A stretch of DNA of 64,000 nucleotides from Candidatus Colwellbacteria bacterium (GCA_016176525.1 JACOWZ010000003.1:537925-601924), one strand, 5' to 3'; shown: positions 1,577-62,952, counted from the first letter of the stretch. Program-made: numbers and translations. The notes: generated from the sequence alone by a model not told the origin.

Positions 1577-2641
1577 CTAAATAATTATGCCACCGCCAAG
1601 AAGCTCACCGTTTTTACTGTAGAAAACTGCAGACTGGCCAGGAGCAATGAATTTGATAGGTTTATCAAATTCTAGTTTATAGTTTGTAGTTGGTAGTTTG
1701 TAGATTGTTGCTTTGACAACCGGCTGGCGATAGCGAACGCGTGCAAGAACAGATATTGGAGATTTGAGATTTGATACTGGAGATACGAGATTCACATTTG
1801 TTAATTCAACTTCTTTGCGATACAAAGCTTCGTTATTTTCACCTTCGGCAATGACTATAGTGTTTGCTTTAACATCGCGCTCTGCTACATATGTTGGGCT
1901 TTTAAATCCACCTATACCCAAACCATGTCTTTGGCCAATGGTGTAGAAATATGCGCCGTCGTGGCGGCCAATAGAAACGCCCTCGGTGTTCAACACCGTT
2001 CCTTCATGTTTTGGTAAATATTCACCCAAAAAGTCTTTTAAGGTCACTTGGCCTATAAAGCAGATGCCTTGTGAATCTTTCTTATCAAAATTAGGTAGAC
2101 CTACTTTCTTAGCGATTGCGCGAACCTGTTTCTTTGTATAGTCGCCTATCGGGAAGAGAGAATGTTTTAGCTGATCTTGCATAAGAGTCCATAAGAAATA
2201 AGATTGATCTTTCTGCGTGTCTCGCGCAGAAAGCAATTTTAAATTTGAAATTTTAAATTTTAAATTCCGCTGCAAGCGGACGTAATGTCCAGTTGCTACA
2301 TAATCTGCTCCTAACTCCAGTGCTTTTTTTAAAAATATCCCGAATTTTATTTCTTTATTGCACATAACATCCGGGTTTGGGGTAATACCCTTCTTGTATC
2401 CGTCTATCATATAGTCAACAACAGCTTTCTTATATTCTTTCTCCAAATTCAGTACATAAAAAGGAATATCTAAGTGCTCTGCCGCGCGGCGGGCCATTTC
2501 TGCCTCTTTTTCGTCACATCCGTTTACATTCCAGCAACGCAAATGCACGCCCACGACATCGTAGTTTTGTTTCTTCAATAAATATGCGGCCACGGAAGAA
2601 TCCACTCCTCCCGAGAGCCCTACAAACACTTTCTTCTTCAT
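1577..2641 (-). CDS. mnmA: tRNA-specific 2-thiouridylase MnmA
   Basis: PP-loop motif SGGVDSS near the N-terminus. It has the conserved Cys residues and a C-terminal domain typical of MnmA/TrmU. The length of 354 aa fits. Confidence 0.9.
   Translation of the reverse strand: MKKKVFVGLSGGVDSSVAAYLLKKQNYDVVGVHLRCWNVNGCDEKEAEMARRAAEHLDIPFYVLNLEKEYKKAVVDYMIDGYKKGITPNPDVMCNKEIKFGIFLKKALELGADYVATGHYVRLQRNLKFKISNLKLLSARDTQKDQSYFLWTLMQDQLKHSLFPIGDYTKKQVRAIAKKVGLPNFDKKDSQGICFIGQVTLKDFLGEYLPKHEGTVLNTEGVSIGRHDGAYFYTIGQRHGLGIGGFKSPTYVAERDVKANTIVIAEGENNEALYRKEVELTNVNLVSPVSNLKSPISVLARVRYRQPVVKATIYKLPTTNYKLEFDKPIKFIAPGQSAVFYSKNGELLGGGIII
1672..1707. repeat. TAGTTT(T/G)TAGTT repeat family, copy A (CTAGTTTATAGTTTGTAGTTGGTAGTTTGTAGATTG). 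It lies inside mnmA.
   Basis: 29 of 31 positions are identical to copy C at 62175-62205. On the minus strand it encodes IYKLPTTNYKLEF. Confidence 0.65.
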
Positions 2642-2657
2642 AGCGCTATCCTAATAT

Positions 2658-3176
2658 TTAGCGCACCCATTTGCAACCTGTTCTATTTTGTTTTGCTTGC
2701 TGTTCTGCTAGGGCAATTTCTTGCCTATATTTTGTGTTTGGTTGGTAGAATAGGGCTATAGCCATGCCTTCCTCGACAAGTTTTAGGTTAATATTCGCAT
2801 CCCCCACAAAAATGTAGCGCAAAAACCTGCCATATTGGTCGCTGTCTTCAATATCGCTTTCCAAGTGCACTTGCTTCATTAAAACCAATTCTTCTAGTCT
2901 AGTTTTTGCCGCATCGTAGCATATATGCCCGCGCTCGTCTGCATCAATGCCAAGCAGGCGCACCGAGTTGCCACTCTCTATAACAACAGTGTCGCCGTCT
3001 ATAACTTTGGTCACAACCGCTTCACTACTGATTTCGTTTATTGCTTCTTTATCAGTCTCACCGCCAAGGTAAATTTGTAAATTAGCATTGCCGGAGATAA
3101 CAATAGCCACACTGATTAAGAGCCCTACAATAACAATGCCGATTAATATTTGATACCTCTCAAAAAAGCTTTTCAC
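2658..3176 (-). CDS. Membrane-anchored thermonuclease (SNase-like) family protein
   Basis: N-terminal TM helix followed by an SNc-type motif LLGIDADERG (compare RLxGIDAPE). The length of 172 aa fits staphylococcal-nuclease-like proteins. Confidence 0.6.
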   Translation of the reverse strand: MKSFFERYQILIGIVIVGLLISVAIVISGNANLQIYLGGETDKEAINEISSEAVVTKVIDGDTVVIESGNSVRLLGIDADERGHICYDAAKTRLEELVLMKQVHLESDIEDSDQYGRFLRYIFVGDANINLKLVEEGMAIALFYQPNTKYRQEIALAEQQAKQNRTGCKWVR

Positions 3177-4204
3177 TCGTCGTCCTCGTCGTCGTCACTT
3201 TCTTCCTCATTTTCATCTTCGTCATCCTCATCCTCATCGTCCTTATCTTCATCATCCTTATCTTCGTCGTCTTCATCTTCTGCTTCGTCAATAATATTCT
3301 TAACCTTCTCGAACGAATCATCTGCTTCTTTTGCCAAACGTTCGGCTTCTTCAAAATCGCCGGCATTAAAGGCAGTTTTGGCCTGGGCTATTAAACTATC
3401 GAATTCCATAAATGAATCTGCTGCAAGCTCAACGCCTTCGGCTTTTGCTTCTTCAATCAACTCCTGCTTTTCATCTTGAGCCTCGCTAATCTCTTCTTCT
3501 GCGTCACTCCTTGCGTCTTCCTCGTCCATCTCCATGTCTTCTTCTAAATCATCATCATCAAGATCATCCTCCAGCTTATCTTTTTCGGCTTCAAGCGCAT
3601 CTATTGTTTTATCTTTTAACTCTTCGGCGGCATCTTTTTCTGCTTCAATTGCTTCTAATTCTGCTTTAAGTGTTTCTATAAGTTCGGCATCTCCTGCCTC
3701 TTTCGCGGCTTTAATTTGCTCTTTTAACTCGTCTTTTTGGATGTGGAACTCATCAAGTGCGGTTTCAAATACAGCCTTTGCTTCTTCTCTTTTTTGGTGA
3801 AACTCTTGGTTAATCTCATTTGCAAACTCGCTAACATCTTTGCCTTTTTGCTTCTCTTTTTCAACAATATCTGCAGCGCGCTTTAGGTGAACTTCGAAGC
3901 GCTCTTTTGCTTGGTCTAACCCTTTGGCATTTGCACCCTTGGTCTCTATCATCAGCTTTACCTCGGCCACGCGTTCGGCAGCAAACTTAATTTGCAGCTT
4001 TGCCTTGCCTTCGGCGCCGAATGTAAAAAACTCTCTAACTGATTCGGCCCACTTATCTAAGAAATAAAACAGGCTCTCCGGTGTTAGCCCAGCAGCCGGC
4101 AATTCTAAGTCGGCTTCTTGTGCGTAAACCGCAGATGCGCCCCCGACCAGGGCCAAACCGACCAAAACCGAAATAAGTATTTTTTTCATGTTTATATTAT
4201 ACAC
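3173..4204 (-). CDS. Secreted coiled-coil protein with a poly-acidic (D/E-rich) C-terminal tail
   Basis: Signal-peptide-like N-terminus MKKILISVLVGLALVGGASAVYAQ. The body is a long K/E-rich heptad-like region. The C-terminus is DEDDEDKDDEDKDDEDEDDEDENEEESDDDEDDE. The antisense poly-Ser ORF at 3150-3479 is an artefact of this repeat. Confidence 0.5.
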   Translation of the reverse strand: MYNINMKKILISVLVGLALVGGASAVYAQEADLELPAAGLTPESLFYFLDKWAESVREFFTFGAEGKAKLQIKFAAERVAEVKLMIETKGANAKGLDQAKERFEVHLKRAADIVEKEKQKGKDVSEFANEINQEFHQKREEAKAVFETALDEFHIQKDELKEQIKAAKEAGDAELIETLKAELEAIEAEKDAAEELKDKTIDALEAEKDKLEDDLDDDDLEEDMEMDEEDARSDAEEEISEAQDEKQELIEEAKAEGVELAADSFMEFDSLIAQAKTAFNAGDFEEAERLAKEADDSFEKVKNIIDEAEDEDDEDKDDEDKDDEDEDDEDENEEESDDDEDDE

Positions 4205-4269
4205 TATTTCGAAAGGCCGTATTGATTTTCTGCTATGTTTGGGCTAACTTGTAGCCAGGAGAGTTCCTA

Positions 4270-4866
4270 ATGAAAACAGCGCTAATCTCCGTATACCATA
4301 AAGACGGCATTGTGGAGTTTGCAAGACGCCTCTTGAAAATTGGCGACTGGGAAATCCTTGCCTCTGGAGGCACAGCAAAGCACCTTGAAAACGCAGGAAT
4401 ACCAGTAGAAGATGTAGCAACACTAGTTGGCAAGCCGATACTCGGCCACCGCGTTGTCACTCTATCGCGAGAGATTCATGCGGCGCTTCTTGCGCGAGAT
4501 ACCCCAGAAGATCAGGCAGAACTTGACCGAATAGGCGTGCCGCGCATTGACCTAGTTTGCGTTGATCTCTATCCGCTAGAGGCCGCGATCAAAGAAGGCA
4601 AATCTGCCGAAGAAGTGCAAGAATTGACTGACATCGGCGGACCAACCCTTCTGCGCTCTGCCGCAAAAGGCAGGCGGCTCGTAATAGCAGAACCGCATGT
4701 ACGAGAAACTGTTCTGCAATGGCTCAAAAACGGGCGTCCTCACAATCATAAGGAATTCTGCCGAGCCCTCGCGGCAAAAGCCGAAGCTACTGTAGCGCAT
4801 TACTGCCTAACTTCGGCAGCGTACTTGGAAAAGAAGGTAGTAACTCTGCAACGATACAATACCTGA
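4270..4866 (+). CDS. Standalone PurH N-terminal-like domain (MGS-like / IMP cyclohydrolase domain). It lacks the AICAR transformylase domain.
   Basis: ALISVYHKDGIVEFARRLLKIGDWEILASGGTAKHLENAGIPVEDV...VVTLSREIHAALLAR...IDLVCVDLYPLEA aligns well with the PurH N-terminus (LLSVSDKAGIVEFA...LLSTGGTA...VVVNLYPF). The protein is only 198 aa. Its GC content is higher than that of its neighbours. Confidence 0.6.
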   Translation: MKTALISVYHKDGIVEFARRLLKIGDWEILASGGTAKHLENAGIPVEDVATLVGKPILGHRVVTLSREIHAALLARDTPEDQAELDRIGVPRIDLVCVDLYPLEAAIKEGKSAEEVQELTDIGGPTLLRSAAKGRRLVIAEPHVRETVLQWLKNGRPHNHKEFCRALAAKAEATVAHYCLTSAAYLEKKVVTLQRYNT

Positions 4867-5411
4867 CCGCACCCTAGCGGTCTTTTTTTATTCTCTTTTT
4901 CTAACTTTTCTAAAATAGTTTTCAAATTGCCAGATATAAAAACAAGATTGTCAGGTTCTTTAAATCCCAGCTTCTTGTACCAATTTAGTGAATAAGAATC
5001 CTTAAAGGTTGTTGCTTCGAAATATTTTGCATCATATTTATCTATAGCCTCTTGATATAGCGTCTTGGATAACTGCACTCCTACTCCCTTACCCTGATAA
5101 TCAGGCGCTACAAATATTTCGCCATCGTACAGACAATTACCGTTCCACCACGGTTTTACTGCTGTAAAAAATGCTCCAACTATTTTGCCATCATCTTCAG
5201 CTAGAAAATCTAATTTATTCTTTCTATCAAACCAGTATTTTAATAATTTGTGTGCTGATTTTTCAGTCCACTTCTCGCCAACATCATGTCTTTTTGGGTC
5301 ATAGACCTCACAATATAACTTTGCTAACAAATTTAAGTCACCTTCTTTTACGCGTCTTATTGATACTTTATTATTCTTCATGCGGACTTTTTTGCTATTT
5401 CTTCTCGCCAC
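4800..5411 (-). CDS. GNAT-family N-acetyltransferase
   Basis: Motif A-like QGKGVGVQLSKTLYQEA and the general layout of a GNAT fold. 203 aa. Confidence 0.55.
   Translation of the reverse strand: MARRNSKKVRMKNNKVSIRRVKEGDLNLLAKLYCEVYDPKRHDVGEKWTEKSAHKLLKYWFDRKNKLDFLAEDDGKIVGAFFTAVKPWWNGNCLYDGEIFVAPDYQGKGVGVQLSKTLYQEAIDKYDAKYFEATTFKDSYSLNWYKKLGFKEPDNLVFISGNLKTILEKLEKENKKRPLGCGQVLYRCRVTTFFSKYAAEVRQ
4865..4890 (+). terminator. Rho-independent terminator. Hairpin GACCGCACCCTAGCGGTC followed by a T7 run.
   Basis: Perfect 6-bp GC-rich stem and a T-run immediately after the stop of the 4270-4866 ORF. Confidence 0.55.
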
Positions 5412-6818: not shown

Positions 6819-9512
6819 TTATTTTTTATCAAAAACCCTCACGATTTCGTCAAAGTTTCTCAGTTTATCCCTTTCCCATTCCTCTTGCTTTATATAAAGG
6901 GCTTTATAGACAACTCGACTTTGCCGATCGTTTACATCCTCACACCACTTTTGTAATCTTTCAAACTTTAATTTATCGTCATCTTCTTCTCGTCCTTTTG
7001 TTTCAATAATGTAAACGGTTTTCTCATTTTTCTTCACAAAGAAATCAGGGTAGTAGGTGGCTATAAATCCCTCTGAATTTTTATACTCAATTCTAAGCGC
7101 GTTTGCTTCTTTGTTTTGGAAATTCTTTGCAAAAGAAATAACATCATCACAATTTTCAAGAAAATCAGAAAATACCAGCTCAAAATCACTGTCGCCGACA
7201 ATCTTATTGAAGACTGATTTTTTCGGTATTAAGTATGATTTGTCATTCACGACAAAGGGACGCGCCTCGCTGATTTTTATATAATTCTTTATCTCCGTAT
7301 CTCCCTTGTCTTCAACTGTAAGCTCGTTAATAGCTTTCTTGAAAGAATCTTTTATGAGCCTAATATACTCAACCTCTGACAAGTTTCTTAAAACATTGAG
7401 GTCTGACAAATTCACAGGGCTGTCAAACATATTATTCTGCACAAACTCTCTTACCTTGCCGAACAAAATGTCGTAGCAACCGAACAGACGCAGCTCCCGC
7501 ATTATTGCTTGCGCAAAAAATCCGACAACGCTTTGATAATCTGGCTCAATCTCACCGGAAAGTATTGTCGTGTGATGCGTTTTCTCATCCACCACATCTT
7601 TAAAAACAATTTCTCTCTTTTCTTCTTCAGAGAAAGTCTTTACTTTGACTTTTTTATTTCCAAATTTTGAAACATCTAACTCGGCAAGGTTTTTATACTC
7701 TCTCTGAATCCTCGGAGACATCACCGGAATCTCAATATCAAGTTTCTCAATATCTTTTTTCGGATTATCTTTATCAACCTCAATAACCATCGGGGCTATT
7801 GGCTTCGCACCTGTCCCCATCGCTTTCTTCTCAAGAATAACGCCCTCGCCTTTGATTGACTCAACAAAGTCCATAAAAGCGGGTGTTCCCACAACACTTA
7901 CATACTCCTCAACATCATCTCTGCCGAAAAACATTCTGCGTAGTCCTCGCCCAAGGGTTTGTTCTGGGAGAATTTTTGAATCGGCGGCATAAGGTCGTAA
8001 GCCAACGATAGTCGTTACATTTTTTACATCCCAACCCTCTTTCAACATCATCACGGAAATGATCACCTTGAACGGACTTTCCCAACTATCAATTTCATTT
8101 GCTTGCTTTCTAAGTAAATCTAATTCTTCTTTGCTTTTTCCAGAAACGCTTTCAGAAATTTCACCACTCTTATTTGTGTGAATGGTCAAAACCGCGCCTT
8201 TCAAACTTTTAAAACTCGTCTCAATGTATTCCGCCACTTCATCGCAGTTTTTTGTATCATCCGTCATTATGAAAAGAATGGACTTTTTACCCATCGGCTT
8301 TAATACATCGTATGTTTTCTGCCATTCCTCAATACCAAGATTTATATAATCTCTGTATTTTTCGCTGAATAGCGTACTCTGATTTTCTTTCAATTTTCCT
8401 CGGCTCGCCGCGTCCGGCGCAACAGGATTTTTTACAACTCTTTGATGTATCGCTTCAACAAGCGGATAATCAGAAATCGTCTGCACAAAAATAGAACCGT
8501 CATTCTTTTTTGGGGTAGCAGTAAGGTCAATCTGCAAAGATAATCCAGTCCCTTTCTGTTTCAGTCGATTGTCTATGTCGGTAATTGATTTAACCCAAGC
8601 AGACTTATCATCGTGCAAGTGATGGGCTTCGTCATTGAGCACGATAAGCTCGTCTATGTCTCTTACAATCACTCCGAGATCAACCTTAGAATCGCTCGTT
8701 TTAGTAACCGGCTTATCGCCTAAGAAATAGCGGGAAGTATCCTCATCATCCGCGCTTGCGTCTCTTATATCACTTTCAAAAACTCTATGGATATTGGTCA
8801 AAAATATATTTCCTGTGTCGGAAACATTGCGTAAATCATCCTGCAAATGCAAAGTCATTTGAAAATCGTCCTGCCAGTTTTGCCCATGATATCCGTTGTC
8901 AGGCAAAACAGGATCGCTAAAGAAGATTTTTAACCCCTCAAAATCATTCTTGATTCTTTCAAAAACAATGACATTCGGAGTTATCAAAAGAAAGTTCTTT
9001 GCCAAACTTGAATCTTCTTCATATTTTTTATGAAAATATGCCCATGCGATTACCAAACTCATCACTTTAGTCTTGCCCGCGCCTGTCGCCATCTTAATAA
9101 CAAAGCGAAGCCATTCCTCGGTAAACATCTGCGGACTTAACACGCCAGTCGTGTTGTAACGAATAAGATCGTATTTATCTTTTACTTTTGCCACCTCGTA
9201 AAGCCACACGACTGTTTCTAGCGCCTCCCTCTGTGCGAAATAGTATTTGAATTGAGTTGATGCTCCATGCTGGTCATATAAAATATGTTTTTCCCTAAAC
9301 CACCAATTCAAAAGCGACTTAGAAGTATCACTTGCTCCCTCATAATTTTTATCTCGCCATTCTTTTACTTTTTCACGGAGTCCTGCAACAAGAGGCGGTA
9401 GGAGTTTTTGAATAGCTCCTTTTTCCCGCAAATCCTCGTCAGCAGGAAACCATCTGATTTGAGGGTCAAGTATCGCATATGGGTCTTTGGGAAAATCCTT
9501 GTGTAGGGCCAT
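6819..9512 (-). CDS. res: Type III restriction enzyme, Res subunit (SF2 helicase plus C-terminal PD-(D/E)xK nuclease)
   Basis: Walker A MATGAGKTKVMSLVIAWAY. DEAH box LVLNDEAHHL. Helicase motif VI-like QTLGRGLRR. C-terminal nuclease motif YYPDFFV...VYIIETKG. 897 aa. Confidence 0.8.
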   Translation of the reverse strand: MALHKDFPKDPYAILDPQIRWFPADEDLREKGAIQKLLPPLVAGLREKVKEWRDKNYEGASDTSKSLLNWWFREKHILYDQHGASTQFKYYFAQREALETVVWLYEVAKVKDKYDLIRYNTTGVLSPQMFTEEWLRFVIKMATGAGKTKVMSLVIAWAYFHKKYEEDSSLAKNFLLITPNVIVFERIKNDFEGLKIFFSDPVLPDNGYHGQNWQDDFQMTLHLQDDLRNVSDTGNIFLTNIHRVFESDIRDASADDEDTSRYFLGDKPVTKTSDSKVDLGVIVRDIDELIVLNDEAHHLHDDKSAWVKSITDIDNRLKQKGTGLSLQIDLTATPKKNDGSIFVQTISDYPLVEAIHQRVVKNPVAPDAASRGKLKENQSTLFSEKYRDYINLGIEEWQKTYDVLKPMGKKSILFIMTDDTKNCDEVAEYIETSFKSLKGAVLTIHTNKSGEISESVSGKSKEELDLLRKQANEIDSWESPFKVIISVMMLKEGWDVKNVTTIVGLRPYAADSKILPEQTLGRGLRRMFFGRDDVEEYVSVVGTPAFMDFVESIKGEGVILEKKAMGTGAKPIAPMVIEVDKDNPKKDIEKLDIEIPVMSPRIQREYKNLAELDVSKFGNKKVKVKTFSEEEKREIVFKDVVDEKTHHTTILSGEIEPDYQSVVGFFAQAIMRELRLFGCYDILFGKVREFVQNNMFDSPVNLSDLNVLRNLSEVEYIRLIKDSFKKAINELTVEDKGDTEIKNYIKISEARPFVVNDKSYLIPKKSVFNKIVGDSDFELVFSDFLENCDDVISFAKNFQNKEANALRIEYKNSEGFIATYYPDFFVKKNEKTVYIIETKGREEDDDKLKFERLQKWCEDVNDRQSRVVYKALYIKQEEWERDKLRNFDEIVRVFDKK

Positions 9513-39983: not shown

Positions 39984-40011
39984 CAGGTGTTATGATCAAT
40001 CATAACACCTG
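39984..40011. repeat. Palindromic repeat family P24, copy 1 (CAGGTGTTATGATCAATCATAACACCTG). Intergenic between cysS and rplU.
   Basis: Seen directly in the sequence. One central mismatch relative to the other three copies. Confidence 0.75.
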
Positions 40012-44829: not shown

Positions 44830-45711
44830 TTAGATAATTTTGATGGCGCGTAGCTTCGCAGAACGACTGCGTAGGTTTGCCGTAATTTCTTTTTCTTCTG
44901 GAATAACTGGTTTTTTGGTAAGTAGCTTAGCTTTGGCGTTCTCTTCCATCTCTATAAATGCATCCTTTACCAACCTGTCTTCTAGAGAATGGAACGTTAT
45001 AATCACAACTCTTCCGCCAACGGCCATAATTTTCTCCAAGTTCGTGAGAATCCGCTCTAAATTATCCAGTTCGCTGTTTACATATATGCGAAGCGCCTGG
45101 AAAACTCTTGCCACAACACCTGCCTCCCCTTTTTTAAAAAATTTAGGTATTGCCCCTTTAATCACTTCTTTCAGTTGGCCAGCAGTAAGTATTCTTTCTT
45201 TCTTACGCTCCCTTACAATTTCGGCTGCAATTTGTCGCGAGAATCTCTCTTCGCCTAAATTCCATAAGATATCGGCAAGCTCATCCTCGCGCAGGCTGTT
45301 TATAATTTCTGCAGCGGTTTTAATTCCTTCGGTTTTGGAATATCTCATATCAAGCGGTTCCGCGTCGTTTTTATAGCTAAAACCTCTGCCCGCCTCAAGC
45401 TGCCCCGAAGAAAACCCTAGATCTAGCAGTAACCCGTCTGCCTTACCTAACTTTTCTCTTTCCAAGATTTCTGGTAAATCTGCGTAATTTCCGTGGGCGA
45501 AAATAGTTTGTAGTTTATAGTTTTTAGTTTTTAGTTTTGTGATCATGCTTTCATCCCAATCAATTCCTAGAAACTTTCCACTACTCCCTATTTTTTCAAG
45601 AATCGCCTCTGCGTGGCCACCACCGTTAACAGTGGCGTCTATCATAAATTCTCCCGGCTTCGGCACAAGACATTTCAAAACCTCATTTAAAAGAACAGGA
45701 ATATGCATCAA
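44830..45711 (-). CDS. rsmH: 16S rRNA (cytosine1402-N4)-methyltransferase RsmH
   Basis: MMHIPVLLNEVL. SAM motif IDATVNGGGHA. DLGFSSGQL. 293 aa. Confidence 0.9.
   Translation of the reverse strand: MMHIPVLLNEVLKCLVPKPGEFMIDATVNGGGHAEAILEKIGSSGKFLGIDWDESMITKLKTKNYKLQTIFAHGNYADLPEILEREKLGKADGLLLDLGFSSGQLEAGRGFSYKNDAEPLDMRYSKTEGIKTAAEIINSLREDELADILWNLGEERFSRQIAAEIVRERKKERILTAGQLKEVIKGAIPKFFKKGEAGVVARVFQALRIYVNSELDNLERILTNLEKIMAVGGRVVIITFHSLEDRLVKDAFIEMEENAKAKLLTKKPVIPEEKEITANLRSRSAKLRAIKII
45504..45538. repeat. TAGTTT(T/G)TAGTT repeat family, copy B (TAGTTTGTAGTTTATAGTTTTTAGTTTTTAGTTTTG). It lies inside rsmH.
   Basis: Seen directly in the sequence. It encodes ITKLKTKNYKLQT. Confidence 0.6.
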
Positions 45712-48607: not shown

Positions 48608-49131
48608 TAATACAAGTAATTTGGCTTTTATTGCCGGCGGCTGTCGCAAATATTTGCCCCGTAATTTTCCGCTTTTTGCCTATATTAAATTACCCGGTTG
48701 ATTTTGGTAAAACCTTTAACGGTAAGCCAATCTTAGGGCGCCACAAAACTTACAGGGGTTTCCTAGTAGGGATCTTGGGCGGAATATTAACAGCACAAGC
48801 GCAAAAAGCTCTTTACCCAATAATGGAAGCTTATTCAATAGTAGATTACTCGCAGATAAATATATTTATATTCGGTTTTGCGCTTTCTGCCTCTGCTCTT
48901 CTGGGAGATACCGCAAAGAGTTTTTTAAAAAGAAGGTTGAACATCGCACCGGGCAAACCATGGATTCCATTTGACCAAATTGACTGGATTGTAGGGTCAC
49001 TTATCGCGGCGAGTTTTTGGGTTACATTAAACCTCTCCATAATAGTGGTAGGCATTTTTGTGCTAGGCACGTTGCACTTTATACTCAACTTGATTGGGTA
49101 TGCAACCGGCCTAAGAGAAGAAAATCTATAA
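48598..49131 (+). CDS. CarS-like (DUF46, CDP-archaeol synthase family) integral membrane cytidylyltransferase
   Basis: 177 aa with 5 TM helices. LLPAAVANICPVI and FGKTFNGKPILGRHKTYRGF resemble the CarS PAYxANxxPV and GxxKTxxG cytoplasmic-loop motifs. This is from memory of the family, not from a database search. Confidence 0.5.
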   Translation: MEIVIQVIWLLLPAAVANICPVIFRFLPILNYPVDFGKTFNGKPILGRHKTYRGFLVGILGGILTAQAQKALYPIMEAYSIVDYSQINIFIFGFALSASALLGDTAKSFLKRRLNIAPGKPWIPFDQIDWIVGSLIAASFWVTLNLSIIVVGIFVLGTLHFILNLIGYATGLREENL

Positions 49132-49699
49132 GAGCTTTAGTTGCTAAAAAAGCGGCAAAAAGCATAGATGTTATGTTTAGGTAATCCGCACCTGTAAAAA
49201 CATAAACCGTAAAAATCGCATAAGAAAGGTATGCCAAAACATTGGGGAATGCGCCTGCCATAGGGCGGATAAGCCAATCACTGACACGCCCCAGATTCTT
49301 GCGCACTACCATAAGAACCCTTGCAAGCAGCATAAAATAAACATAGGCTGCCCCGGCGGCTCCAGAGACTAAAGAGACGGCCGTAAGACCGATAATAAAC
49401 AAAGTAAAATTCAAGTTATCTACTAAAACGTCTGTAAACTTACCTTTATCTGAATCTACTTTTAAATATCTCGCCAACCCACCATCAAACGCATCCATTG
49501 CAAGGGCAGCAAGTAAAAAATAAAAAGACATAAGCGGATTTGTGCCAACAAAATATATAAACCCAAGCATCAAAAAAACGCCCGCAAAACTCAATGCTGA
49601 TGGGTGAACCCTAAAAAATGCCAAGACTTTAACTATAGGCCTAATTAGGGGCTCACGGATATCGCGTAGCCAATAATACATTTTCTCTTCGCCGTTCAT
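49085..49699 (-). CDS. CDP-alcohol phosphatidyltransferase family protein
   Basis: DAFDGGLARYLKVDSDKGKFTDVLVD fits the D-G-x2-A-R-x8-G-x3-D-x3-D signature. 204 aa, polytopic. Confidence 0.7.
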   Translation of the reverse strand: MNGEEKMYYWLRDIREPLIRPIVKVLAFFRVHPSALSFAGVFLMLGFIYFVGTNPLMSFYFLLAALAMDAFDGGLARYLKVDSDKGKFTDVLVDNLNFTLFIIGLTAVSLVSGAAGAAYVYFMLLARVLMVVRKNLGRVSDWLIRPMAGAFPNVLAYLSYAIFTVYVFTGADYLNITSMLFAAFLATKALIDFLLLGRLHTQSS

Positions 49700-54740: not shown

Positions 54741-55201
54741 AATGTTAGCTCTATTATTGAATCGCTCGTGGCATCATATGCCGAGATAACCGCGTTGTAG
54801 CCTGTAACACTATCATAATTTGCAGCCCACTTGCCCTGCCAAAAGCCATCTCTGCTTCTGCCGTTTAAGAGCTCTAGTTGATACGGATATTCCTGTGTTT
54901 CGGTTTTTATAGTCACTGTGACCGATTTTACGGGCCTAAAATTTGTAACATGCACGCTAAACATCTGCTCCTCGCCGCGCTTAATATCAAACGGGTCAAT
55001 AAAGCCGCTTACTATTCTTGGACCCCTCTCGCCGCTAGAAACAGTAAACACCTCGCCCCTTTCCGACGGGCTCGGCACAAATTTATCACTATTCACTACC
55101 TGCTCTTCGCTAAAAGGAAATAAAGTTATAAATACAAAAAATATGGCAATTGCAAGCGCAAAGAGAGCTAGATAATCTTGTTGACTGCCTTTTTTAGCCA
55201 T
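54737..55201 (-). CDS. Small secreted/membrane-anchored hypothetical protein of 154 aa
   Basis: N-terminal hydrophobic helix. It overlaps the giant protein start by 4 bp. Confidence 0.35.
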   Translation of the reverse strand: MAKKGSQQDYLALFALAIAIFFVFITLFPFSEEQVVNSDKFVPSPSERGEVFTVSSGERGPRIVSGFIDPFDIKRGEEQMFSVHVTNFRPVKSVTVTIKTETQEYPYQLELLNGRSRDGFWQGKWAANYDSVTGYNAVISAYDATSDSIIELTL

Positions 55202-56259: not shown

Positions 56260-59200
56260 TTATAATTTTTCGTTTATGTTAATCGCGCCTTCTTTTATGT
56301 GCTCTCCAACTTCATCATCTGTTATTGCTCTATCCGCTACCAACCTGTAGCTTACCTCTCCTTCGCCGCTGCCGTGGATTGTAAGGGTATTTGCGATTGT
56401 GTCTTTGGTGTACCAAACGCGGCCATCAAACCCCGGGGTTAAAAACACCTGCAGACCCTCCATATCCGCACCAAAGTTTGTTATTTGGTAGAAAACCCAA
56501 AGATTACTGCCTCGCTTAAGGTTATCAAAATCAATAATATATTCATTCCCGGCTAGGTGCGCAGTGTCTACCACTTCTTCTTTTGTGGAACCCGCCATAA
56601 ATGGCGCATAGGTTGCGTAGTCTTCGCCGCCAATGTTGTACACCGGGTCGATCGTGGCAACTGTAATTTTGTTTACGCCAAGAATGTTGTTGTTATTCAT
56701 GTTTAAGTTGCCGTCAAAACGCCCTTCGCCTGCAACATGAAGTTTTACGGCAGGACTCGCCGTTCCGATGCCAACATTCCCGCTGCCTGGCATTAGCCGA
56801 ATATGATCACCCACTCCCCCGGCAGAATATAAAGAAAGATGGTTACCATTTTCCGCTTTTATACAAAATTCGTCTGTAACGTTTGTACAACTAGTCCATG
56901 CCCCGTCATACAACATAATACCCTGGCGTGTTGCTCCAGAATAAAACCCTAGCCACTCGTAAGTGGTGTCGTCTGCTCGCGCGCTATGGAATCCGATTTT
57001 ATCGTTTGTGCTGTTGATATCGGTGCCGATAGTCAGATTACCGGAGAATGTTCCCGATCCTCCATTCACTATATTTCTTGATGAATCTATAAATTGTGTG
57101 GTGCCGACTTTAAGGTCTCTCACCCTAAGGGTCTCGTATCCGGTTCCTGGGTTGTCTATAACCGCGAGATCCCCGCTGTTGTCGCCATCCACATAACCGA
57201 ACTGGGACGCAACCGCGCCGGAGTAGTGGAAAGATATTCTTGGGGCGTCGCCCGCGCCGGCGTTCCAATCCTGTATAACCTCTAGGGGCGCTTGGTTGTA
57301 AGCTAGTCCTGCGGAGCCCTGCAACAGACGCATCCTTCCGCTAACATCTAATTTGGACCCTGGACTCGTAGTCCCTATGCCGACGTTACCACTGGTGTTG
57401 GCAAAAAGTACGTTAGTGCGGTAGGCAAAGTTGCCTCCGCTTGCAACACTCAAGGTAGCTCCACCCGATCCCACCTCTAATGTGCCGTCAGTGCGCATTA
57501 TTCCAGCATTGTGGTAGATATTCTTAGAGCCATAACTTCGAATCCATGTAGTGTCTGACATATACCATCCACCACCATATGTTTCAAACAATAGCGGGTT
57601 ACTGCCTATAAGGCGTAGATTACCGCTTCCACGAATGTCTCCTATAACATCAAGGGGGTAACTTGGGCTCACCGTGCCTACACCTACACGCTGATTAGTT
57701 GCGTCAACGTATAAAACCGGTGAAGTACTCGCCGCCGCGTCAAAACGATAGCTGCCTTTTGTAGTGGTAGAACCAAACGTGCCCGGCGTAATTTGCCCAG
57801 CCGCAATTGCACTTGTGGTTTCTACATTGCCCGTAATGGTGCCGGATACATCCAAATCGCCGGTGATGTTTGTGTTACCGTTTACGTTTAGTTTGTATAC
57901 ACCGGGCGTTGTGGTGGCAATACCGACACTGCCGAATGTCGGAACAAGAAGAACGTTATTAGCTACACTAATCATATCTACATTAGCACCAGTAGCGCTA
58001 GCCGAAGTTCTAAGAACTATAGCATCATTTGTGTTATCTCTTACTTGTATGACTAATCTAGAGTCCTCTGTATTCAGATTATGCTCTCCATAGATTAATC
58101 CGTCGTCTGTAGACCCAATACCCGCTGTGCCGCTGTTTGTTCCCGCGTTGAATTGAATGGCATTTATTGGAATATTAACGTTTCCAATAACCTCAAGTTT
58201 TGTTGTTGGCGAGGCCGTCCCTATTCCAACGTTGCCAGATCTTTGAATCAGAAATCTAGGTGTCGTTAAATTATTATCATCAAATACTTGAAAGGCATTT
58301 GTACTATCATTGACTATAATATTCACAGTTGCATTTCCAGCTGCTCCGTTACCAACTTTAAGTTTGGGTTGAGCATCATCACTTATTCCTCTATCTGCAA
58401 CTTCTAAATTAGCACCTGGGCTAGCCGTACCTATGCCGATATTGCCGCTTCCATCTATTCTCATTCTTTCCGATGGAGCGTCGTTTGTTGAACCTGCGTT
58501 GAATATAATATCTCCCCCTGATTGATTAGCGTTGATATTCAATTCTCCACTCTGAACACCGAAACCGTAAACGGTGGTACCAGATTCATAAAGTCGAATA
58601 TGTGCAGTGGGATTTGTACCCCCAGTATCATAGAACGTTCCAAAGGACAATTTAGATCCCGGCGCCGTCGTCCCAATACCAACGTTGCCGTTCACGGAAA
58701 GCTTGGCCGTGTGGGACGTTACTCCTGCGTCATAACCAATTCCCACCTCGTTTTCGCCTTTCGCCTTAAAAGACACTATCTGGTTGCCGTCGCCATTGCC
58801 TACCCCGAAATTCTCGCCGCCAGTACTCGACTCGCCGACTAAGTAAAGTGTGTCATAGTCAGCAGTCGGCCCGGTGACGGTCCACCGGTAATCGATGGGG
58901 TTGGTTGTTCCGGTGGGCTCAATCCTTGACATACCCTTGACCGTCAACGGGTTACCCGGAGATGTCGTCCCGATGCCGACGTTGCCGCCTGCGGCTATTG
59001 TCAGCCTGTCCAATGAGTTTGTCCTAAATCTAAAATCCCTTGAACCAGAATTGTGCCCTATTGAAAGACCTGTATTGTCCATTACGAAGTCTGTTGTGTA
59101 TCCTGATGTTGACGTTGAACCATTGAATCTGAAAGCTGTATTTACACCATCTTGTATATGCAATTTCGTTCCAGGGCTCGTCGTCCCTATACCTACCCGC

Positions 59201-60639
59201 TCATTAGCTCCGTCAATAATAGCCCAGCCAGTTGTGAGCCCAGTCTTTCTAAATGTATAGTTTACAGAAGAGCTAGGATATGCAGAGCCAAAAGTGCCTC
59301 CACTAACTTGCGCTGCGACAAGTTCACTTGTGGTTTCTACATTGCCAGTAATTGTGCCAGATACGTCTAAATTACCAGTTATGTTTGTGTTGCCTGCGAC
59401 GTTCAGCTTATAAGTTCCCGGAGTAGTAATACCGATACCAACATTACCTGTTGAATCTATAGTAACTCTGTCAACTCCATTATCCTGGATATGCAAAGCA
59501 CTTATATCTGCATCAACCGATCCGATATATACATCATTAACACCATTTATCCCAAGGATTCTTGTTGATGCTCCTGCGGAATTCTTGGCTCTGTAATACT
59601 GTGCGTTTGCGTTCAGAGTTATGTCGCCGTTAACATCGAGCTTTGAACCCGGCGTGACTGTACCTATGCCGACGTTGCCGGAGTTGAGAATTGTCATGGC
59701 CGTTGTCGCATTGGTTCCCAAATAGATGTGATGGTTCTCGCGTTGCCACAGGTAGACATCCTGGTTTGAATCCACTTGGACATCAAATCCGTCACCGGAC
59801 GCAGACCCCGTGTTAGCGTTGCTTATCTTGATCTGAGAATCGGTTCCTGCACCATTCACATGCAATTGTCTTTGAGGACTTGTCGTCCCGATGCCGACGT
59901 TGCCGCTAACAACCAAACTATTTGCTGGCGCAGCAGTGCTTGCGGAATACCCTATTGCCGCGTTGCCATTGACTTGAAGTTTTGAACCTGCTGTTGCCGT
60001 GCCAATGCCAACCCCTCCGGTTCCGGATGGTTCAAGGATGATATCTCCTCCCCCCGGCTGTTCATTTTTAATATGGAAATCAAAAGTGTTAGCATTCGGA
60101 AAACCCAATTTTGCAAGGCTAGTCCAGCCCCCAACGGTTGGTGAAAAACCATACTCTATGTATGGTATGGCGGTGGCTGCGTCGGTTGCGGCACTTCGCA
60201 AGCGGAGGTGCGGGTTTATACCTTTAATCTCTAGTTTGGCTGCCGGTTCGCGAACGTTATCAACGAAATCATCGCCAATACCGACATTTGTGTTGTTATG
60301 AAAAAGGTTTGTCGTTGACACCCAAGCGGGCGCGCCCAGTGCATTCGTGCCTCCATAAATAGTTGCGCCTTGTATTACCGATGGTAACAGACCTTCAATC
60401 TCTCTCCATTCTGCTAAACCATCAGTGTTTGTGGCAGTAAGAACTGTGCCATCCGTCGGGTTGCCGCCGCTTATCTGAATACGCCTGCCGCCGGTAATTC
60501 CCACCGTAGTGTCTGAAACCGTTATAGCCGAACCTCCACCGCCAGGCGGTTGTTGAGTTGGTTGTGCAAAAACAACAGTAGCGCCAATTATGCTCACAAA
60601 GAGAAGCACAAGCGCCCGATTTAACACTCTTATAACCAT
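56260..60639 (-). CDS. Giant secreted repeat protein (1459 aa) with at least 12 repeats of a GNVGIGTTSPGxKL module. Probably a beta-helical fibre or adhesin.
   Basis: Signal-peptide-like N-terminus. Recurrent units such as SGNVGIGTTSPQRQLHVNG, GNVGIGTVTPGSKLDVNG, GNVGIGITTPGTYKLNVAGNTNITGNLDVSGTITGNVETTS (seen twice), GNIGIGTASPGANLEV and GNVGIGTASPAVKLHVAG. Confidence 0.6.
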   Translation of the reverse strand: MVIRVLNRALVLLFVSIIGATVVFAQPTQQPPGGGGSAITVSDTTVGITGGRRIQISGGNPTDGTVLTATNTDGLAEWREIEGLLPSVIQGATIYGGTNALGAPAWVSTTNLFHNNTNVGIGDDFVDNVREPAAKLEIKGINPHLRLRSAATDAATAIPYIEYGFSPTVGGWTSLAKLGFPNANTFDFHIKNEQPGGGDIILEPSGTGGVGIGTATAGSKLQVNGNAAIGYSASTAAPANSLVVSGNVGIGTTSPQRQLHVNGAGTDSQIKISNANTGSASGDGFDVQVDSNQDVYLWQRENHHIYLGTNATTAMTILNSGNVGIGTVTPGSKLDVNGDITLNANAQYYRAKNSAGASTRILGINGVNDVYIGSVDADISALHIQDNGVDRVTIDSTGNVGIGITTPGTYKLNVAGNTNITGNLDVSGTITGNVETTSELVAAQVSGGTFGSAYPSSSVNYTFRKTGLTTGWAIIDGANERVGIGTTSPGTKLHIQDGVNTAFRFNGSTSTSGYTTDFVMDNTGLSIGHNSGSRDFRFRTNSLDRLTIAAGGNVGIGTTSPGNPLTVKGMSRIEPTGTTNPIDYRWTVTGPTADYDTLYLVGESSTGGENFGVGNGDGNQIVSFKAKGENEVGIGYDAGVTSHTAKLSVNGNVGIGTTAPGSKLSFGTFYDTGGTNPTAHIRLYESGTTVYGFGVQSGELNINANQSGGDIIFNAGSTNDAPSERMRIDGSGNIGIGTASPGANLEVADRGISDDAQPKLKVGNGAAGNATVNIIVNDSTNAFQVFDDNNLTTPRFLIQRSGNVGIGTASPTTKLEVIGNVNIPINAIQFNAGTNSGTAGIGSTDDGLIYGEHNLNTEDSRLVIQVRDNTNDAIVLRTSASATGANVDMISVANNVLLVPTFGSVGIATTTPGVYKLNVNGNTNITGDLDVSGTITGNVETTSAIAAGQITPGTFGSTTTKGSYRFDAAASTSPVLYVDATNQRVGVGTVSPSYPLDVIGDIRGSGNLRLIGSNPLLFETYGGGWYMSDTTWIRSYGSKNIYHNAGIMRTDGTLEVGSGGATLSVASGGNFAYRTNVLFANTSGNVGIGTTSPGSKLDVSGRMRLLQGSAGLAYNQAPLEVIQDWNAGAGDAPRISFHYSGAVASQFGYVDGDNSGDLAVIDNPGTGYETLRVRDLKVGTTQFIDSSRNIVNGGSGTFSGNLTIGTDINSTNDKIGFHSARADDTTYEWLGFYSGATRQGIMLYDGAWTSCTNVTDEFCIKAENGNHLSLYSAGGVGDHIRLMPGSGNVGIGTASPAVKLHVAGEGRFDGNLNMNNNNILGVNKITVATIDPVYNIGGEDYATYAPFMAGSTKEEVVDTAHLAGNEYIIDFDNLKRGSNLWVFYQITNFGADMEGLQVFLTPGFDGRVWYTKDTIANTLTIHGSGEGEVSYRLVADRAITDDEVGEHIKEGAININEKL

Positions 60640-60657: not shown

Positions 60658-61539
60658 TTATATAGCGGCGCAGGTGTTGAAATCTTTAACACTTTGGTTA
60701 TATGTTGCAATGTCTTCTTTAACCTCTTCAAGTAGGGCATTATATTGCTCGGCAAGCGCGTTGTATTCATCTATCTTTTGGTTATACTCCGGCCCGCTCT
60801 TGGGCCTGGTTTGTTCCAAATCAACTTTCCGCTCTTCTAGCTCCGCCGCCCAAATTTCTAGTTGCGCCTCATTTGATTCAATCTCCGCGGCCAAATACTC
60901 TGCTACAGGCGGGCAATAAGAGAGAGGCAAGCCAAATTCTTGCGCGGCAAGCCAAACACTTTGGCCATTAAACTCACCTTTTTCTGCATACACGCCAATT
61001 TCCGTAAACCTCTGGTTAAGAATATTTGCTCTGTGGCCTGGGCTATTCATCCAACCATCTACAACCATTTCGTCCCCCGCCCAGTTGCCCAGCGCCAAGT
61101 TTTCGCCTATCAAAATAAATTGATAGTTTGCGCCCGCTGCCAGATCCGCAGGACCCGTGCCATTGGGCGAAACGTGTTCAAAATATTCAAGCGCGAACAT
61201 ATCTTTAACCTTAGCGATGGCGGCATTTTTAAGTTTTAAGTTTTCAGAGAGGGGCGGTAAACCCTGTTCCGCACGATGTTTGTTTGTCCAACTTATTATG
61301 CCCGCGCTTGTAAGCTCTTTGCCGGGCAGAGATGTGCGTGATTTTAAGGGGCCGGGTGTGAGCACACGGTCTGCGCTGGGCAAAACCTCAACGCGAGAAA
61401 CAATGTCACTCAAAATTTCGTCTACTGCAGGCAGCCTTGACCATAAGCTCGCGATATCAGAACGGAACACCGTTAACACACCTACTGTAACTACCAATGC
61501 AAGAAATACTAAAATTATTTTTATTATGTGATTAAACAT
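60658..61539 (-). CDS. CAP (SCP/PR-1-like) domain protein with an N-terminal TM helix and a C-terminal coiled coil
   Basis: GWMNSPGHRANILNQRFTEIGV is a canonical CAP motif (HYTQVVW / GHxxN-type region). The N-terminal helix is IILVFLALVVTVGVLTVF. The C-terminus is E/L/A-rich. Confidence 0.65.
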   Translation of the reverse strand: MFNHIIKIILVFLALVVTVGVLTVFRSDIASLWSRLPAVDEILSDIVSRVEVLPSADRVLTPGPLKSRTSLPGKELTSAGIISWTNKHRAEQGLPPLSENLKLKNAAIAKVKDMFALEYFEHVSPNGTGPADLAAGANYQFILIGENLALGNWAGDEMVVDGWMNSPGHRANILNQRFTEIGVYAEKGEFNGQSVWLAAQEFGLPLSYCPPVAEYLAAEIESNEAQLEIWAAELEERKVDLEQTRPKSGPEYNQKIDEYNALAEQYNALLEEVKEDIATYNQSVKDFNTCAAI

Positions 61540-61550
61540 GGCTTATCCAC

Positions 61551-61574
61551 GGTGTTATGATTAATCATAACACC
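61551..61574. repeat. Palindromic repeat family P24, copy 2 (GGTGTTATGATTAATCATAACACC). Intergenic between the CAP-domain gene and the PduO-like gene.
   Basis: Seen directly in the sequence. Confidence 0.75.
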
Positions 61575-61581
61575 GCATTCT

Positions 61582-62169
61582 CTATTTATATTTGGGGTGT
61601 TTTTCTCTTTTATGTGACTTTTTGGCTTCCATGCGCCCGAGGGCAAAAAATAGACTGGAAAGGCGGTTTAAATATGCCATTATCGCTGAGTCTGGCAACA
61701 AGGTGTTATGATTAATCATAACGCCTTGTTTTTTACTTTTATAATTCTTATAAAAAACAAGTGCACTGCGTTCCGCGCGGCGCGAAACTGCCCTTACATA
61801 ATCCAAAAGTGCAGACGTTTCGTTTACGCCGGATATGATAAATCCGCGTTCGGGTTTTAACTTGCGCTCACATTCGTCAATAATACGCTCAATTTCCGTT
61901 ATTTTAGTTTTTGGGAACGCCGGCGACTTGTATTTGCCGCCTAGCATAATATTTGCAACATTTGCTTGGATTATAAACAAATTTTCTTGCACGGTGTGTA
62001 AAATCTTTTTTGTCACCGCAGACAGCTTGCGCGCTTTTGCAACGCCTATAAGCGAGTTTAGCTCGTCTAGGTCGCCGAGCGCCGCAATTTCCACACAAGT
62101 TTTGTCTATCTTCTTCTTACCAATAACGCTTTTTCCACTATCACCCTTGCCGGTATAAAAAAGTCCCAT
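61582..62169 (-). CDS. PduO-type ATP:cob(I)alamin adenosyltransferase family protein. It carries an in-frame copy of the palindromic repeat.
   Basis: N-terminal YTGKGDSGKS...GDLDELNSLIG (compare YTRTGDKGETSL...LDELNS). C-terminal YLNRLSSLFFALGR (compare YLNRLSDLLFVLAR). The repeat encodes GVMINHNT at 61702-61725. Confidence 0.7.
   Translation of the reverse strand: MGLFYTGKGDSGKSVIGKKKIDKTCVEIAALGDLDELNSLIGVAKARKLSAVTKKILHTVQENLFIIQANVANIMLGGKYKSPAFPKTKITEIERIIDECERKLKPERGFIISGVNETSALLDYVRAVSRRAERSALVFYKNYKSKKQGVMINHNTLLPDSAIMAYLNRLSSLFFALGRMEAKKSHKREKHPKYK
61697..61730. repeat. Palindromic repeat family P24, copy 3, with extended arms AACAAGG...CCTTGTT. It lies in frame inside the PduO-like CDS.
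   Basis: Seen directly in the sequence. It encodes KQGVMINHNTL. Confidence 0.75.
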
Positions 62170-62174
62170 AGTAA

Positions 62175-62205
62175 TAGTTTATAGTTTTTAGTTGGTAGTT
62201 AGTAG
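62175..62205. repeat. TAGTTT(T/G)TAGTT repeat family, copy C (TAGTTTATAGTTTTTAGTTGGTAGTTAGTAG). Intergenic between the PduO-like gene and rsmE.
   Basis: Seen directly in the sequence. Confidence 0.65.
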
Positions 62206-62238
62206 TGAACACAAAATCTACACACTACCTACTATACA

Positions 62239-62952
62239 CTAATCACTAATTGCAACGTATGTTGCAATTATTGCTGCTGTTTCGGCGCGCAAAGTTAGTT
62301 TGCCTAAACTCACAATCTTAAACCCTGCTTCTTTCGCGGCTGTGAGCTCCGATTCGTCCCAACCGCCTTCTGGGCCAACCCAGAGATTAAGTTTTAAGTT
62401 TTTAGTTTTTAGTTTTAAGTCATTTATGGGCTCGCCAGATATATCAAAAAGGGTGTTATGATTAATCATAACACCACCTGCGTTTTTTACAGCCTCATTA
62501 AAAGAGATCACTTCGTGAATCTTAGGGACAACCGCGCGGCCAGACTGCTCGGCCGCCTCTTTAGCAATGATTCGCAAGCGCTCCAGATTAAGGTTTAGTT
62601 TAACCGTGCGCTTTGCAACAATCGGAACAATTTCTTTTATGCCGACTTCTGTTGTTTTTTGCACAACTAACTCGAAATTATCTCTTTTTAAAACCGAGCA
62701 ATAAAGAGTGATATCCGCCTCCGACTCTGATTTATTTTGGGAAATTTCGAGAACTTTAAACATAATAAAACCGTTGCCAAAATCCTGAATTTCAGCTACG
62801 GCCTCGCAAGATGCGCCGTCTCCCAAAACCAGCTTATCACCTATGCGAAGGCGCAATACGTTTCGAATCTGTTTTACAACATCCTCGTCGGATACTCTTA
62901 ATAATTTTCCAGACTCGAGAGTTTCGTTAATAATAAATCTATGGAGTTTCAT
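62239..62952 (-). CDS. rsmE: 16S rRNA (uracil1498-N3)-methyltransferase RsmE. It carries both repeat families in frame just before the conserved GPEGG motif.
   Basis: MKLHRFIINE...(PUA-like N-terminus)...WVGPEGGWDESE (RsmE GPEGGF/W motif). The segment GVMINHNTLFDISGEPINDLKLKTKNLKLNL is encoded by the repeats at 62388-62475. Confidence 0.75.
   Translation of the reverse strand: MKLHRFIINETLESGKLLRVSDEDVVKQIRNVLRLRIGDKLVLGDGASCEAVAEIQDFGNGFIMFKVLEISQNKSESEADITLYCSVLKRDNFELVVQKTTEVGIKEIVPIVAKRTVKLNLNLERLRIIAKEAAEQSGRAVVPKIHEVISFNEAVKNAGGVMINHNTLFDISGEPINDLKLKTKNLKLNLWVGPEGGWDESELTAAKEAGFKIVSLGKLTLRAETAAIIATYVAISD
62388..62421. repeat. TAGTTT(T/G)TAGTT repeat family, copy D (TAAGTTTTAAGTTTTTAGTTTTTAGTTTTAAGTC). 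It lies inside rsmE, 30 bp from P24 copy 4.
   Basis: Seen directly in the sequence. It encodes DLKLKTKNLKLN. Confidence 0.6.
62452..62475. repeat. Palindromic repeat family P24, copy 4. It lies in frame inside rsmE.
   Basis: Seen directly in the sequence. It encodes GVMINHNT. Confidence 0.75.

Follow-up and report, generated by a model that had tools for sequence, protein, structure and literature searches.

What kind of sequence can recur inside three conserved genes for RNA-modifying enzymes and also stand directly in front of a start codon? The question is raised by a 64,000-nucleotide stretch of DNA from a Candidatus Colwellbacteria bacterium (GCA_016176525.1 JACOWZ010000003.1:537925-601924; hereafter the window), in which a short A-rich repeat occurs in mnmA (copy A), rsmH (copy B) and rsmE (copy D) and at one intergenic site (copy C). 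A preliminary description had located these four copies correctly and named their hosts, which Pfam searches confirmed as MnmA, RsmH and RsmE, with C lying between genes; it had taken them for a single 26-nucleotide (nt) dispersed repeat. We found instead that they are tandem arrays of heptamers. Tandem Repeats Finder reported a period of 7 at all four loci, with 2.9–5.1 copies and 86–92% matches. Each of arrays A–D consists of four to five tandem units whose sequence is TAGTTNN on the plus strand, or CTANAAA when read along the coding strand, and the sense-strand units of the family are CTACAAA, CTAAAAA, CTATAAA and TTAAAAC (Table 1). They are DNA-level tandem repeats that are indifferent to codon boundaries. 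They are also, we think, probably old resident heptanucleotide microsatellites, kept homogeneous by slippage or gene conversion and held at a fixed length by selection for the reading frame, and not mobile.

The family is strongly enriched over shuffled background within the window. With at most two mismatches allowed, the pattern TAGTTNNTAGTTNNTAGTT gave 12 overlapping matches, all on the plus strand and confined to loci A–D, against 0.16 expected and a maximum of 2 in dinucleotide shuffles, and exact period-7 runs with at least 10 matches numbered 4 against 0.1 expected. Chance low complexity was rejected as the source of the arrays, the shuffle counts being far below those observed. When a short member in a gene for a CAP/SCP-domain protein is counted, which the preliminary description had overlooked, CTANAAA-type units occur at five loci within 64 kb. 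Two further period-7 arrays in mnmA, with other units, had likewise gone unmentioned. Arrays A (1673–1703) and C (62175–62205) are alike at 29 of 31 nt, as claimed before, and their variant units follow one another in the same order. Arrays B and D have an exact run of 20 nt in common (AGTTTTTAGTTTTTAGTTTT); the 21-nt core previously quoted for this pair holds except for its first base, where D opens with A rather than T. The RsmH protein is identical, array included, in independent Logan assemblies (a comparison of proteins, not of reads), which rules out an assembly artefact.

The plus strand is closed in every frame through A, B and D. On the minus strand a single frame is open, encoding IYKLPTTNYKL in A, KLKTKNYKLQT in B and DLKLKTKNLKL in D, in agreement with the K/L/T/N/Y-rich peptides described earlier. 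One explanation of the repeats is therefore that these positively charged hairpins and loops are selected as protein, and that the DNA periodicity is a by-product of A-rich codon usage. Such selection would fit the observation that every in-gene host in the window, except for the CAP-domain protein, modifies tRNA or rRNA. It would also fit the similar arrays in two open reading frames (ORFs) of another contig, L125, that are MiaA/MiaB-like by a reading of their translations only, and the wide occurrence of the YKLxxxNYKL hairpin motif in MnmA of Parcubacteria. However, when we resampled the synonymous codons of the encoded peptides with the codon usage of the window's genome (20,000 runs), the observed identity at lag 7 was equalled or exceeded at a frequency of 5e-5 for A and for D, in 0 of 20,000 runs for B and at 7e-4 for a further mnmA array with another unit (the loop-2 array), placing the lag-7 identity far above what the peptides demand (P ≤ 5e-5 for A, B and D). 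Together with the facts that a 7-nt period is meaningless for a protein and that C is non-coding, this excess indicates that the periodicity arises at the DNA level, and it largely refutes selection of the peptides. That explanation is further at odds with unit changes that alter residues in concert and with arrays that encode unrelated peptides in the same loops, both described below, and we regard it as very improbable.

The variant units are precisely those that remove in-frame stop codons: AAC TAA has become AAC TAT in mnmA and rsmH, and AAC TTA in rsmE. Array B also has a 27-nt exact match (AAACTAAAAACTAAAAACTATAAACTA, peptide KLKTKNYKL; 45509–45535, minus strand) to the mnmA array of a relative (L202, 9819–9845), that is, to a different gene in a different organism. 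We read this match as convergence forced by the avoidance of stop codons; alternatively, it could reflect a shared source sequence. Because an exact match of this length exists between non-homologous arrays of different organisms, we judged the similarity of A and C to be weak proof of copying.

The segments had further been described as candidate lineage-specific insertions, among them an insertion of 31 residues in RsmE made up of D and a palindrome, P24, from which D is indeed separated by 30 bp. Alignments with orthologues showed no difference in length, and the 31-residue insertion is absent: the whole stretch of P24 plus D is at most 1–3 residues longer than in relatives and differs by a few residues from homologues in the PDB. 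RsmH runs through array B without a gap relative to the structures from Thermus, Thermotoga and E. coli. At site A, MnmA shows 0–1 gap relative to solved structures and is as long as the E. coli and S. pneumoniae proteins. Across sites A, B and D, the excess over PDB and Parcubacteria homologues is 0 to +1 residue. In alignments with Parcubacteria homologues (17 RsmE, 22 RsmH and 29 MnmA, at 50–71% identity), the window proteins were of the same length or shorter at the array sites, RsmH being among the shortest at site B, and the MnmA stretch from RYRQP to KF(I/V)A measured 22 residues in five of the six genes examined as DNA and 23 in the sixth. Nor do the arrays have the structure of an inserted element: their folding energy of 0 kcal/mol does not improve on that of shuffles, and they contain no terminal or other inverted repeats and are not palindromic, and an Rfam scan of the window returned two tRNAs and no match to an array. 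The arrays are not inserted or mobile elements.

Instead, they occupy tolerant parts of their host proteins without changing the length of these parts: for MnmA a β-hairpin, for RsmH a stretch that probably leads from a helix into a strand, and for RsmE a loop. In an AlphaFold model of MnmA (mean predicted local distance difference test score (pLDDT) 85.8), array A forms a β-hairpin of the C-terminal barrel (strand 309–315, turn, strand 321–330; pLDDT ~90), and the loop-2 array lies in the loop between strands 121–124 and 135–138. In alignments with solved RsmH structures, array B falls between two conserved motifs, IDxD and GNF/GNY, a site that we take to be the end of a helix and the next strand.

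The preliminary description also suggested that the arrays and P24 are parts of one composite element or share an insertion hotspot. P24 (GGTGTTATGATTAATCATAACACC), an exact palindrome of 24 nt, occurs four times in the window, at 0–1 mismatch; the two copies in frame encode GVMINHNTL in both RsmE and a cobalamin adenosyltransferase. Only the rsmE copy lies near an array, the other three of the four having no heptamer array nearby, and the flanks of the four copies are unrelated. Conversely, the relative L001 has the rsmE array and lacks P24, where the window is longer by a net 9 nt. The two families thus show neither the co-occurrence nor the spacing of a composite element, and P24 and the heptamer arrays are independent.

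Hairpin elements of another kind do enter these genes. The rsmE heptamer array of L001 contains, in frame and exactly within it, a nested-hairpin element of 45 nt (ATCCCGATTCGCAAAAGCGAATCGAGGATCCTCGATAAAGTCGGG; 537–581), which folds at −22.6 kcal/mol (z = −5.5) when 5 nt of flank are included at either end. Neither this insert nor P24 had a copy in the other fetched loci. In loop 2 of mnmA, between the TGHY and KDQSYF motifs, we also observed in-frame inserts of 120–135 nt in L203 (2796–2954), L208 and L209, with inverted repeats in the L203 insert and at least three peptide families (RYISDGTG..., LAPAAS..DQARR and TRFARPATRSL...); small intragenic elements seem to have a hotspot in this loop. 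The L001 and loop-2 inserts indicate that small hairpin elements do enter such tolerant sites and that the heptamer arrays are not elements of this kind. A lineage-specific in-frame mobile element, similar to miniature inverted-repeat transposable elements or Rickettsia palindromic elements and perhaps composite with P24, would have these inserts and the proximity of D to P24 in its favour. Given arrays that add no length and have neither inverted repeats nor secondary structure, and a palindrome without conserved flanks that is near an array in one of four copies and missing beside the L001 array, we find such an origin scarcely credible. The same holds for its variant, phase-variable contingency repeats, which is opposed by the interruption of the arrays by variant units, by their residence in housekeeping mnmA, rsmH and rsmE and by the identical RsmH protein, array included, in independent assemblies.

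Eight orthologous loci were compared as DNA, with six genes in the comparison of MnmA site A. Contrary to the idea of lineage-specific insertions, arrays were found at the same sites in distant relatives. Array A is identical to its orthologues at a fraction of 0.87 (L202) and 0.84 (L203) of positions, against 0.66 for the whole gene, and the rsmE array of L001 matches array D at 34 of 35 nt, the two proteins being ~60% identical. The units themselves differ between orthologous arrays. At site A, L203 has three identical CCACAAA units, and L209 has G at position 7 of all four units, with altered residues (KANS as against KTKN). Substitutions common to all or most units of orthologous arrays were therefore present in this sample, which comprises only six orthologues, and such in-phase unit differences appear to be the signature of concerted evolution in an array kept at one site. 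At other sites the unit is different altogether. The rsmE loop that holds D in the window contains GAAAATT four times in L207; mnmA loop 2 contains CTCATTA 3.5 times in L202, where the window and L204 have AATTTAA; and site B in L205 carries a degenerate TAAAAAC/TTAAAAC/CCAAAAC array. L209 has an array of AAATTAG heptamers in the variable region of mnmA that matches 1752–1792, just upstream of the conserved RVRYRQP motif. Hairpin peptides of the array type (YKLxxxNYKL and derivatives) are scattered over the entire neighbour-joining tree of Parcubacteria MnmA.

From this concerted pattern we infer that replication slippage, short-tract gene conversion between neighbouring units, or both, would keep the arrays periodic. 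Selection on the host protein would fix the number of units, because only changes of ±3 units (21 nt) preserve the reading frame, and would favour single-base variants that abolish the stop codons of the pure unit. The in-gene arrays are most likely tolerated passengers without a function of their own.

Several points weigh against such a history of resident microsatellites. Simple slippage expansion predicts added length, and none was observed. The main weakness is that the origin of an array, as opposed to its maintenance, would require either a compensating deletion or length-neutral overwriting. L204, the closest relative, has no array A; the sequence in its place is unrelated though almost equally long (32% identity there, as against 71% gene-wide), and it looks like the replacement of a patch rather than gradual decay. 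In addition, the identity of A to C (29/31) exceeds that of A to its L202 orthologue (27/31), which could reflect exchange between loci. As to sampling, the arrays were surveyed in 64 kb of a 645-kb genome, and the relatives' loci were picked as orthologues of array-bearing genes, which biases array density upward.

These points lead to a different explanation, in which arrays spread by length-neutral patch substitution between loci, an array overwriting an equally long stretch of another gene. This could take place by ectopic gene conversion or through single-stranded fragments that anneal at microhomologies while DNA is replicated (SPDIR, for short-patch double illegitimate recombination). 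Copying of this kind would account for the unchanged length at all three in-gene sites, for the 29 of 31 nt and the order of variant units common to A and C, for the presence of one unit family at five loci in 64 kb and for the equally long, different patch in L204; SPDIR is a documented bacterial mechanism of short substitutions (bioRxiv 10.1101/2023.11.22.568220). However, low complexity yields identical sequence convergently, as in the 27-nt match between rsmH of the window and mnmA of L202, and no donor–recipient pair with flanking microhomology was identified. Site-specific arrays inherited across distant relatives also fit vertical persistence better than frequent overwriting. We therefore consider dispersal by copying unlikely, although it deserves to be kept in view. 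A more far-reaching proposal, that bacteria of the candidate phyla radiation (CPR) possess a dedicated process of length-neutral overwriting, by templated patch substitution in a 7-nt register with A-rich heptamer cassettes, seems to us quite doubtful. If true, such a process would repeatedly rewrite hairpins and loops that are tolerant, in essential enzymes of RNA modification, as well as 5′ leaders, and it would be a novel way in which protein loops turn over locally, or a cis-code common to leaders and coding regions, instead of passive drift.

The intergenic copy raises the possibility of a role in gene expression. Array C ends 4 nt ahead of the ATG of the adenosyltransferase gene and supplies a TATAAA 8 nt before it; because a TAA stands in frame four codons upstream of this ATG, the array is non-coding. 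A distant low-GC organism (L122, 47% identity) has (CTACAAA)3 after CTACTCA units at 8507–8544, ending 5 nt upstream of the rsmH ATG, and thus has both the unit family and the position relative to the ATG seen for array C. Heptamer arrays in L206 and L207 abut start codons. A loose Shine–Dalgarno motif was found for only 10 of the 53 window ORFs. We also noted TATAAT 6–8 nt before the ATG of many window genes (for example 56260–60639, 54737–55201, 49085–49699 and 18991–20361), a spacing that suggests leaderless or very short-leader mRNAs. A consensus promoter and terminator scan near array C found nothing above background except P24, which scores as a terminator-like hairpin.

Array C, an unstructured A-rich stretch, may speculatively contribute to the initiation of transcription or translation. 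More generally, the repeats could be functional cis-elements, mainly as leader copies: a protein such as ribosomal protein S1, or one that is Csp-like, would bind or land on them, or they would provide a −10-like box, and by analogy with the role proposed for the TAACTGA repeats of Beggiatoaceae they would aid initiation in the absence of a Shine–Dalgarno sequence. The start-codon arrays, the scarcity of Shine–Dalgarno motifs, the frequent TATAAT and the prediction that the arrays are fully unstructured are consistent with this role, as is the finding that most TAACTGA repeats precede start codons by no more than a few nt (PMC4679880). On the other hand, of the five members in the window, four lie within genes and lack a downstream start codon, the units differ at the same sites in relatives, contrary to what a sequence-specific binder would impose, and the promoter scan at C was not above background. 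A cis-acting function is thus rather improbable for the family.

Period 7 is preferred in this DNA. A lenient scan of the window returned six rows at period 7, corresponding to five loci (array A counted twice, as two overlapping intervals), and no arrays at periods 4, 5 or 8–11, so that 7 is the one short period represented there by more than one array; a stricter period-7 scan gave zero arrays in 30 shuffles. As a background set we used 900 kb of unrelated rsmH neighbourhoods, which came from RsmH relatives of 38–47% identity among the matches listed by a metagenome scan seeded with an RsmH alignment. These contained 33 period-7 arrays, as against at most 15 for each of the other periods between 4 and 12, and several low-GC loci of the set had A-rich heptamer arrays in frame. 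In L125, a metagenomic contig of 35% GC, we observed five in-frame A-rich heptamer arrays in two ORFs, with units AAAATCA, AATTCCA and AAAATTC. We take these ORFs to be MiaB and MiaA, judging from their translations and not from a family search; on that identification, in-frame heptamer arrays in RNA-modification genes extend beyond the window's genome. A scan of a genome collection, which gives breadth of distribution rather than counts, found (TAGTTNN)4 at more than 120 loci among the matches listed, in cyanobacteria, Bacteroidota, Planctomycetota, Acidobacteriota, a few CPR bacteria and others; the loci among these matches are mostly outside ORFs, and some reach 35 units. Heptameric repeats are over-represented in bacteria yet little studied (PMC4692102).

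Direct repeats of the heptamer TAACTGA are known from marine Beggiatoaceae, cyanobacteria and Bacteroidetes, in sets of 2–6 copies without predicted structure, mostly a few nt upstream of start codons that lack a Shine–Dalgarno sequence; in ORFs they occur in reverse orientation only and at protein ends (MacGregor 2015, PMC4679880). The arrays described here are similarly head-to-tail 7-nt repeats, present in many dispersed sets per genome (several in the window, beyond chance), with no RNA structure and a similar AACT core; copy C and the L122 array lie a few nt upstream of start codons, and stop-codon content restricts placement in ORFs, as it does for TAACTGA. They differ in their unit, CTANAAA, and in location, only C being intergenic near a start codon while the other four members in the window are in genes, and most arrays have the sense ('forward') orientation and lie mid-domain in conserved housekeeping genes. 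Conservation at orthologous sites and concerted change of units, both found here, are unreported for TAACTGA repeats. A second comparison is with the heptamers among the short tandemly repeated repetitive (STRR) sequences of cyanobacteria and with long heptameric simple sequence repeats (SSRs) of prokaryotes, which are likewise heptamer arrays, a class over-represented among bacterial SSRs (Rehm et al. 2015, PMC4692102). Among the matches listed, (TAGTTNN)4 itself occurs in many cyanobacteria, Bacteroidota and other phyla. STRR sequences and long heptameric SSRs are mostly intergenic and often long, with up to 35 units among the matches listed, whereas those of the window are short and in frame, are broken up by variant units and keep a fixed length. 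The usual repeats of coding DNA have periods that are multiples of 3, unlike the period of 7 at array sites kept over deep divergence.

Long heptameric SSRs in prokaryotes were reportedly described by Mrázek et al. in 2007. Under the cryptic simplicity that Tautz, Trick and Dover are said to have put forward in 1986, slippage-like homogenization gives local repeats in coding DNA regardless of codon phase, and selection filters them. Rickettsia palindromic elements were reportedly presented by Ogata in 2000 as very short repeats tolerated in frame inside conserved genes, and the small dispersed repeats (SDR) of Nostoc, reportedly treated by Elhai in 2008, are said to be associated with heptamer repeats. 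The L001 hairpin inside a heptamer array recalls this last association. Unlike either of these element families, the arrays add no length and are neither hairpins nor palindromes; a similarity to such elements is confined to the neighbouring P24 and the L001 insert. Literature searches on heptamer repeats in CPR bacteria or Parcubacteria found nothing relevant. What is unusual here is the in-frame residence in conserved housekeeping genes, the persistence at orthologous sites and the concerted evolution.

Resident microsatellites of this kind would mean that frame-breaking 7-nt repeats can persist for a long time in the folded cores of conserved proteins, even in streamlined CPR genomes. For annotation, they call for caution against treating such segments as insertions, foreign DNA or mobile elements. 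With the same sites present in hundreds of Parcubacteria orthologues, they also offer a system in which to ask why the tandem repeats of bacteria are dominated by period 7, bear on the tolerance of proteins to DNA-driven sequence turnover, and tie in with the unexplained heptamer repeats beside start codons in Beggiatoaceae and cyanobacteria.

Table 1. Arrays, palindromes and host genes in the window, with arrays of relatives (L-numbers); units are given on the sense strand unless noted
Feature	Coordinates	Tandem Repeats Finder interval (period 7)	Strand	Units	Context
Array A (MnmA site A, window)	1669..1710	1673-1708	−	~5 units; CTACAAA CTACCAA CTACAAA CTATAAA CTA	In frame, mnmA; encodes IYKLPTTNYKLE
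Array B	45502..45543	45504-45538	−	5 units; CAAAACT AAAAACT AAAAACT ATAAACT ACAAACT	In frame, rsmH; encodes ITKLKTKNYKLQTI
Array C	62172..62206	62174-62193	−	CTAACTACCAACTAAAAACTATAAACTATTACT	Intergenic; ATG directly after
Array D	62384..62424	62387-62420	−	5 units; TTAAAAC TAAAAAC TAAAAAC TTAAAAC TTAAT	In frame, rsmE; encodes NDLKLKTKNLKLN
Short fifth member	61227..61244		−	2.6 units; AAAACTT AAAACTT AAAA	In frame, CAP/SCP-domain protein gene; encodes ENLKLKN
mnmA loop-2 array, other unit	2233..2269		−	AATTTAA AATTTAA AATTTCA AATTTAA AATTG	In frame, mnmA; encodes NLKFKISNLKL
Weaker mnmA period-7/21 repeat	1752..1792		−	GAGATTT-like on the plus strand	In frame, mnmA; encodes SPVSNLKSPIS
MnmA site A, L202				CTATAAA CTAAAAA CTAAAAA CTATAAA CTA	
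MnmA site A, L203				CCACAAA CCACAAA CCACAAA CTACAAA CTA	
MnmA site A, L208				..CCACAAG CTACAAG CTA	
MnmA site A, L209				CTATAAG CTAAAAG CTAACAG CTATAAG CTC	
L125 arrays	2367-2408, 2719-2755, 4825-4898, 5243-5285				Five arrays, two ORFs
P24 copies	39986-40009, 61551-61574, 61702-61725, 62452-62475				Two intergenic, two in frame
mnmA, tRNA 2-thiouridylase	1577..2641		−		Pfam PF03054, PF20259, PF20258; PDB matches at 1e-85; hosts array A and two further arrays
rsmH/mraW, 16S rRNA m4C1402 methyltransferase	44830..45711		−		Pfam PF01795 at 1e-91; PDB matches; hosts array B
rsmE, 16S rRNA m3U1498 methyltransferase	62239..62952		−		Pfam PF04452, PF20260; hosts array D and one P24 palindrome
PduO-type cob(I)alamin adenosyltransferase	61582..62169		−		Pfam PF01923; array C directly upstream of start codon

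Repeats of other periods were also observed in the window, both on the minus strand. A low-complexity Tyr/Gly/Gln-rich protein repeat (YYQGYYYGQG...) at 52122–52358, inside an ORF of 1177 residues (51207–54740), is encoded by DNA repeats of period 12, 18, 30 and 42. A highly acidic Asp/Glu repeat (DEDDEDKDDEDEDDEDENEEESDDDEDDE) at 3173–3301 lies at the C terminus of the ORF at 3173–4204 and is encoded by DNA repeats of period 9, 15, 21 and 30.

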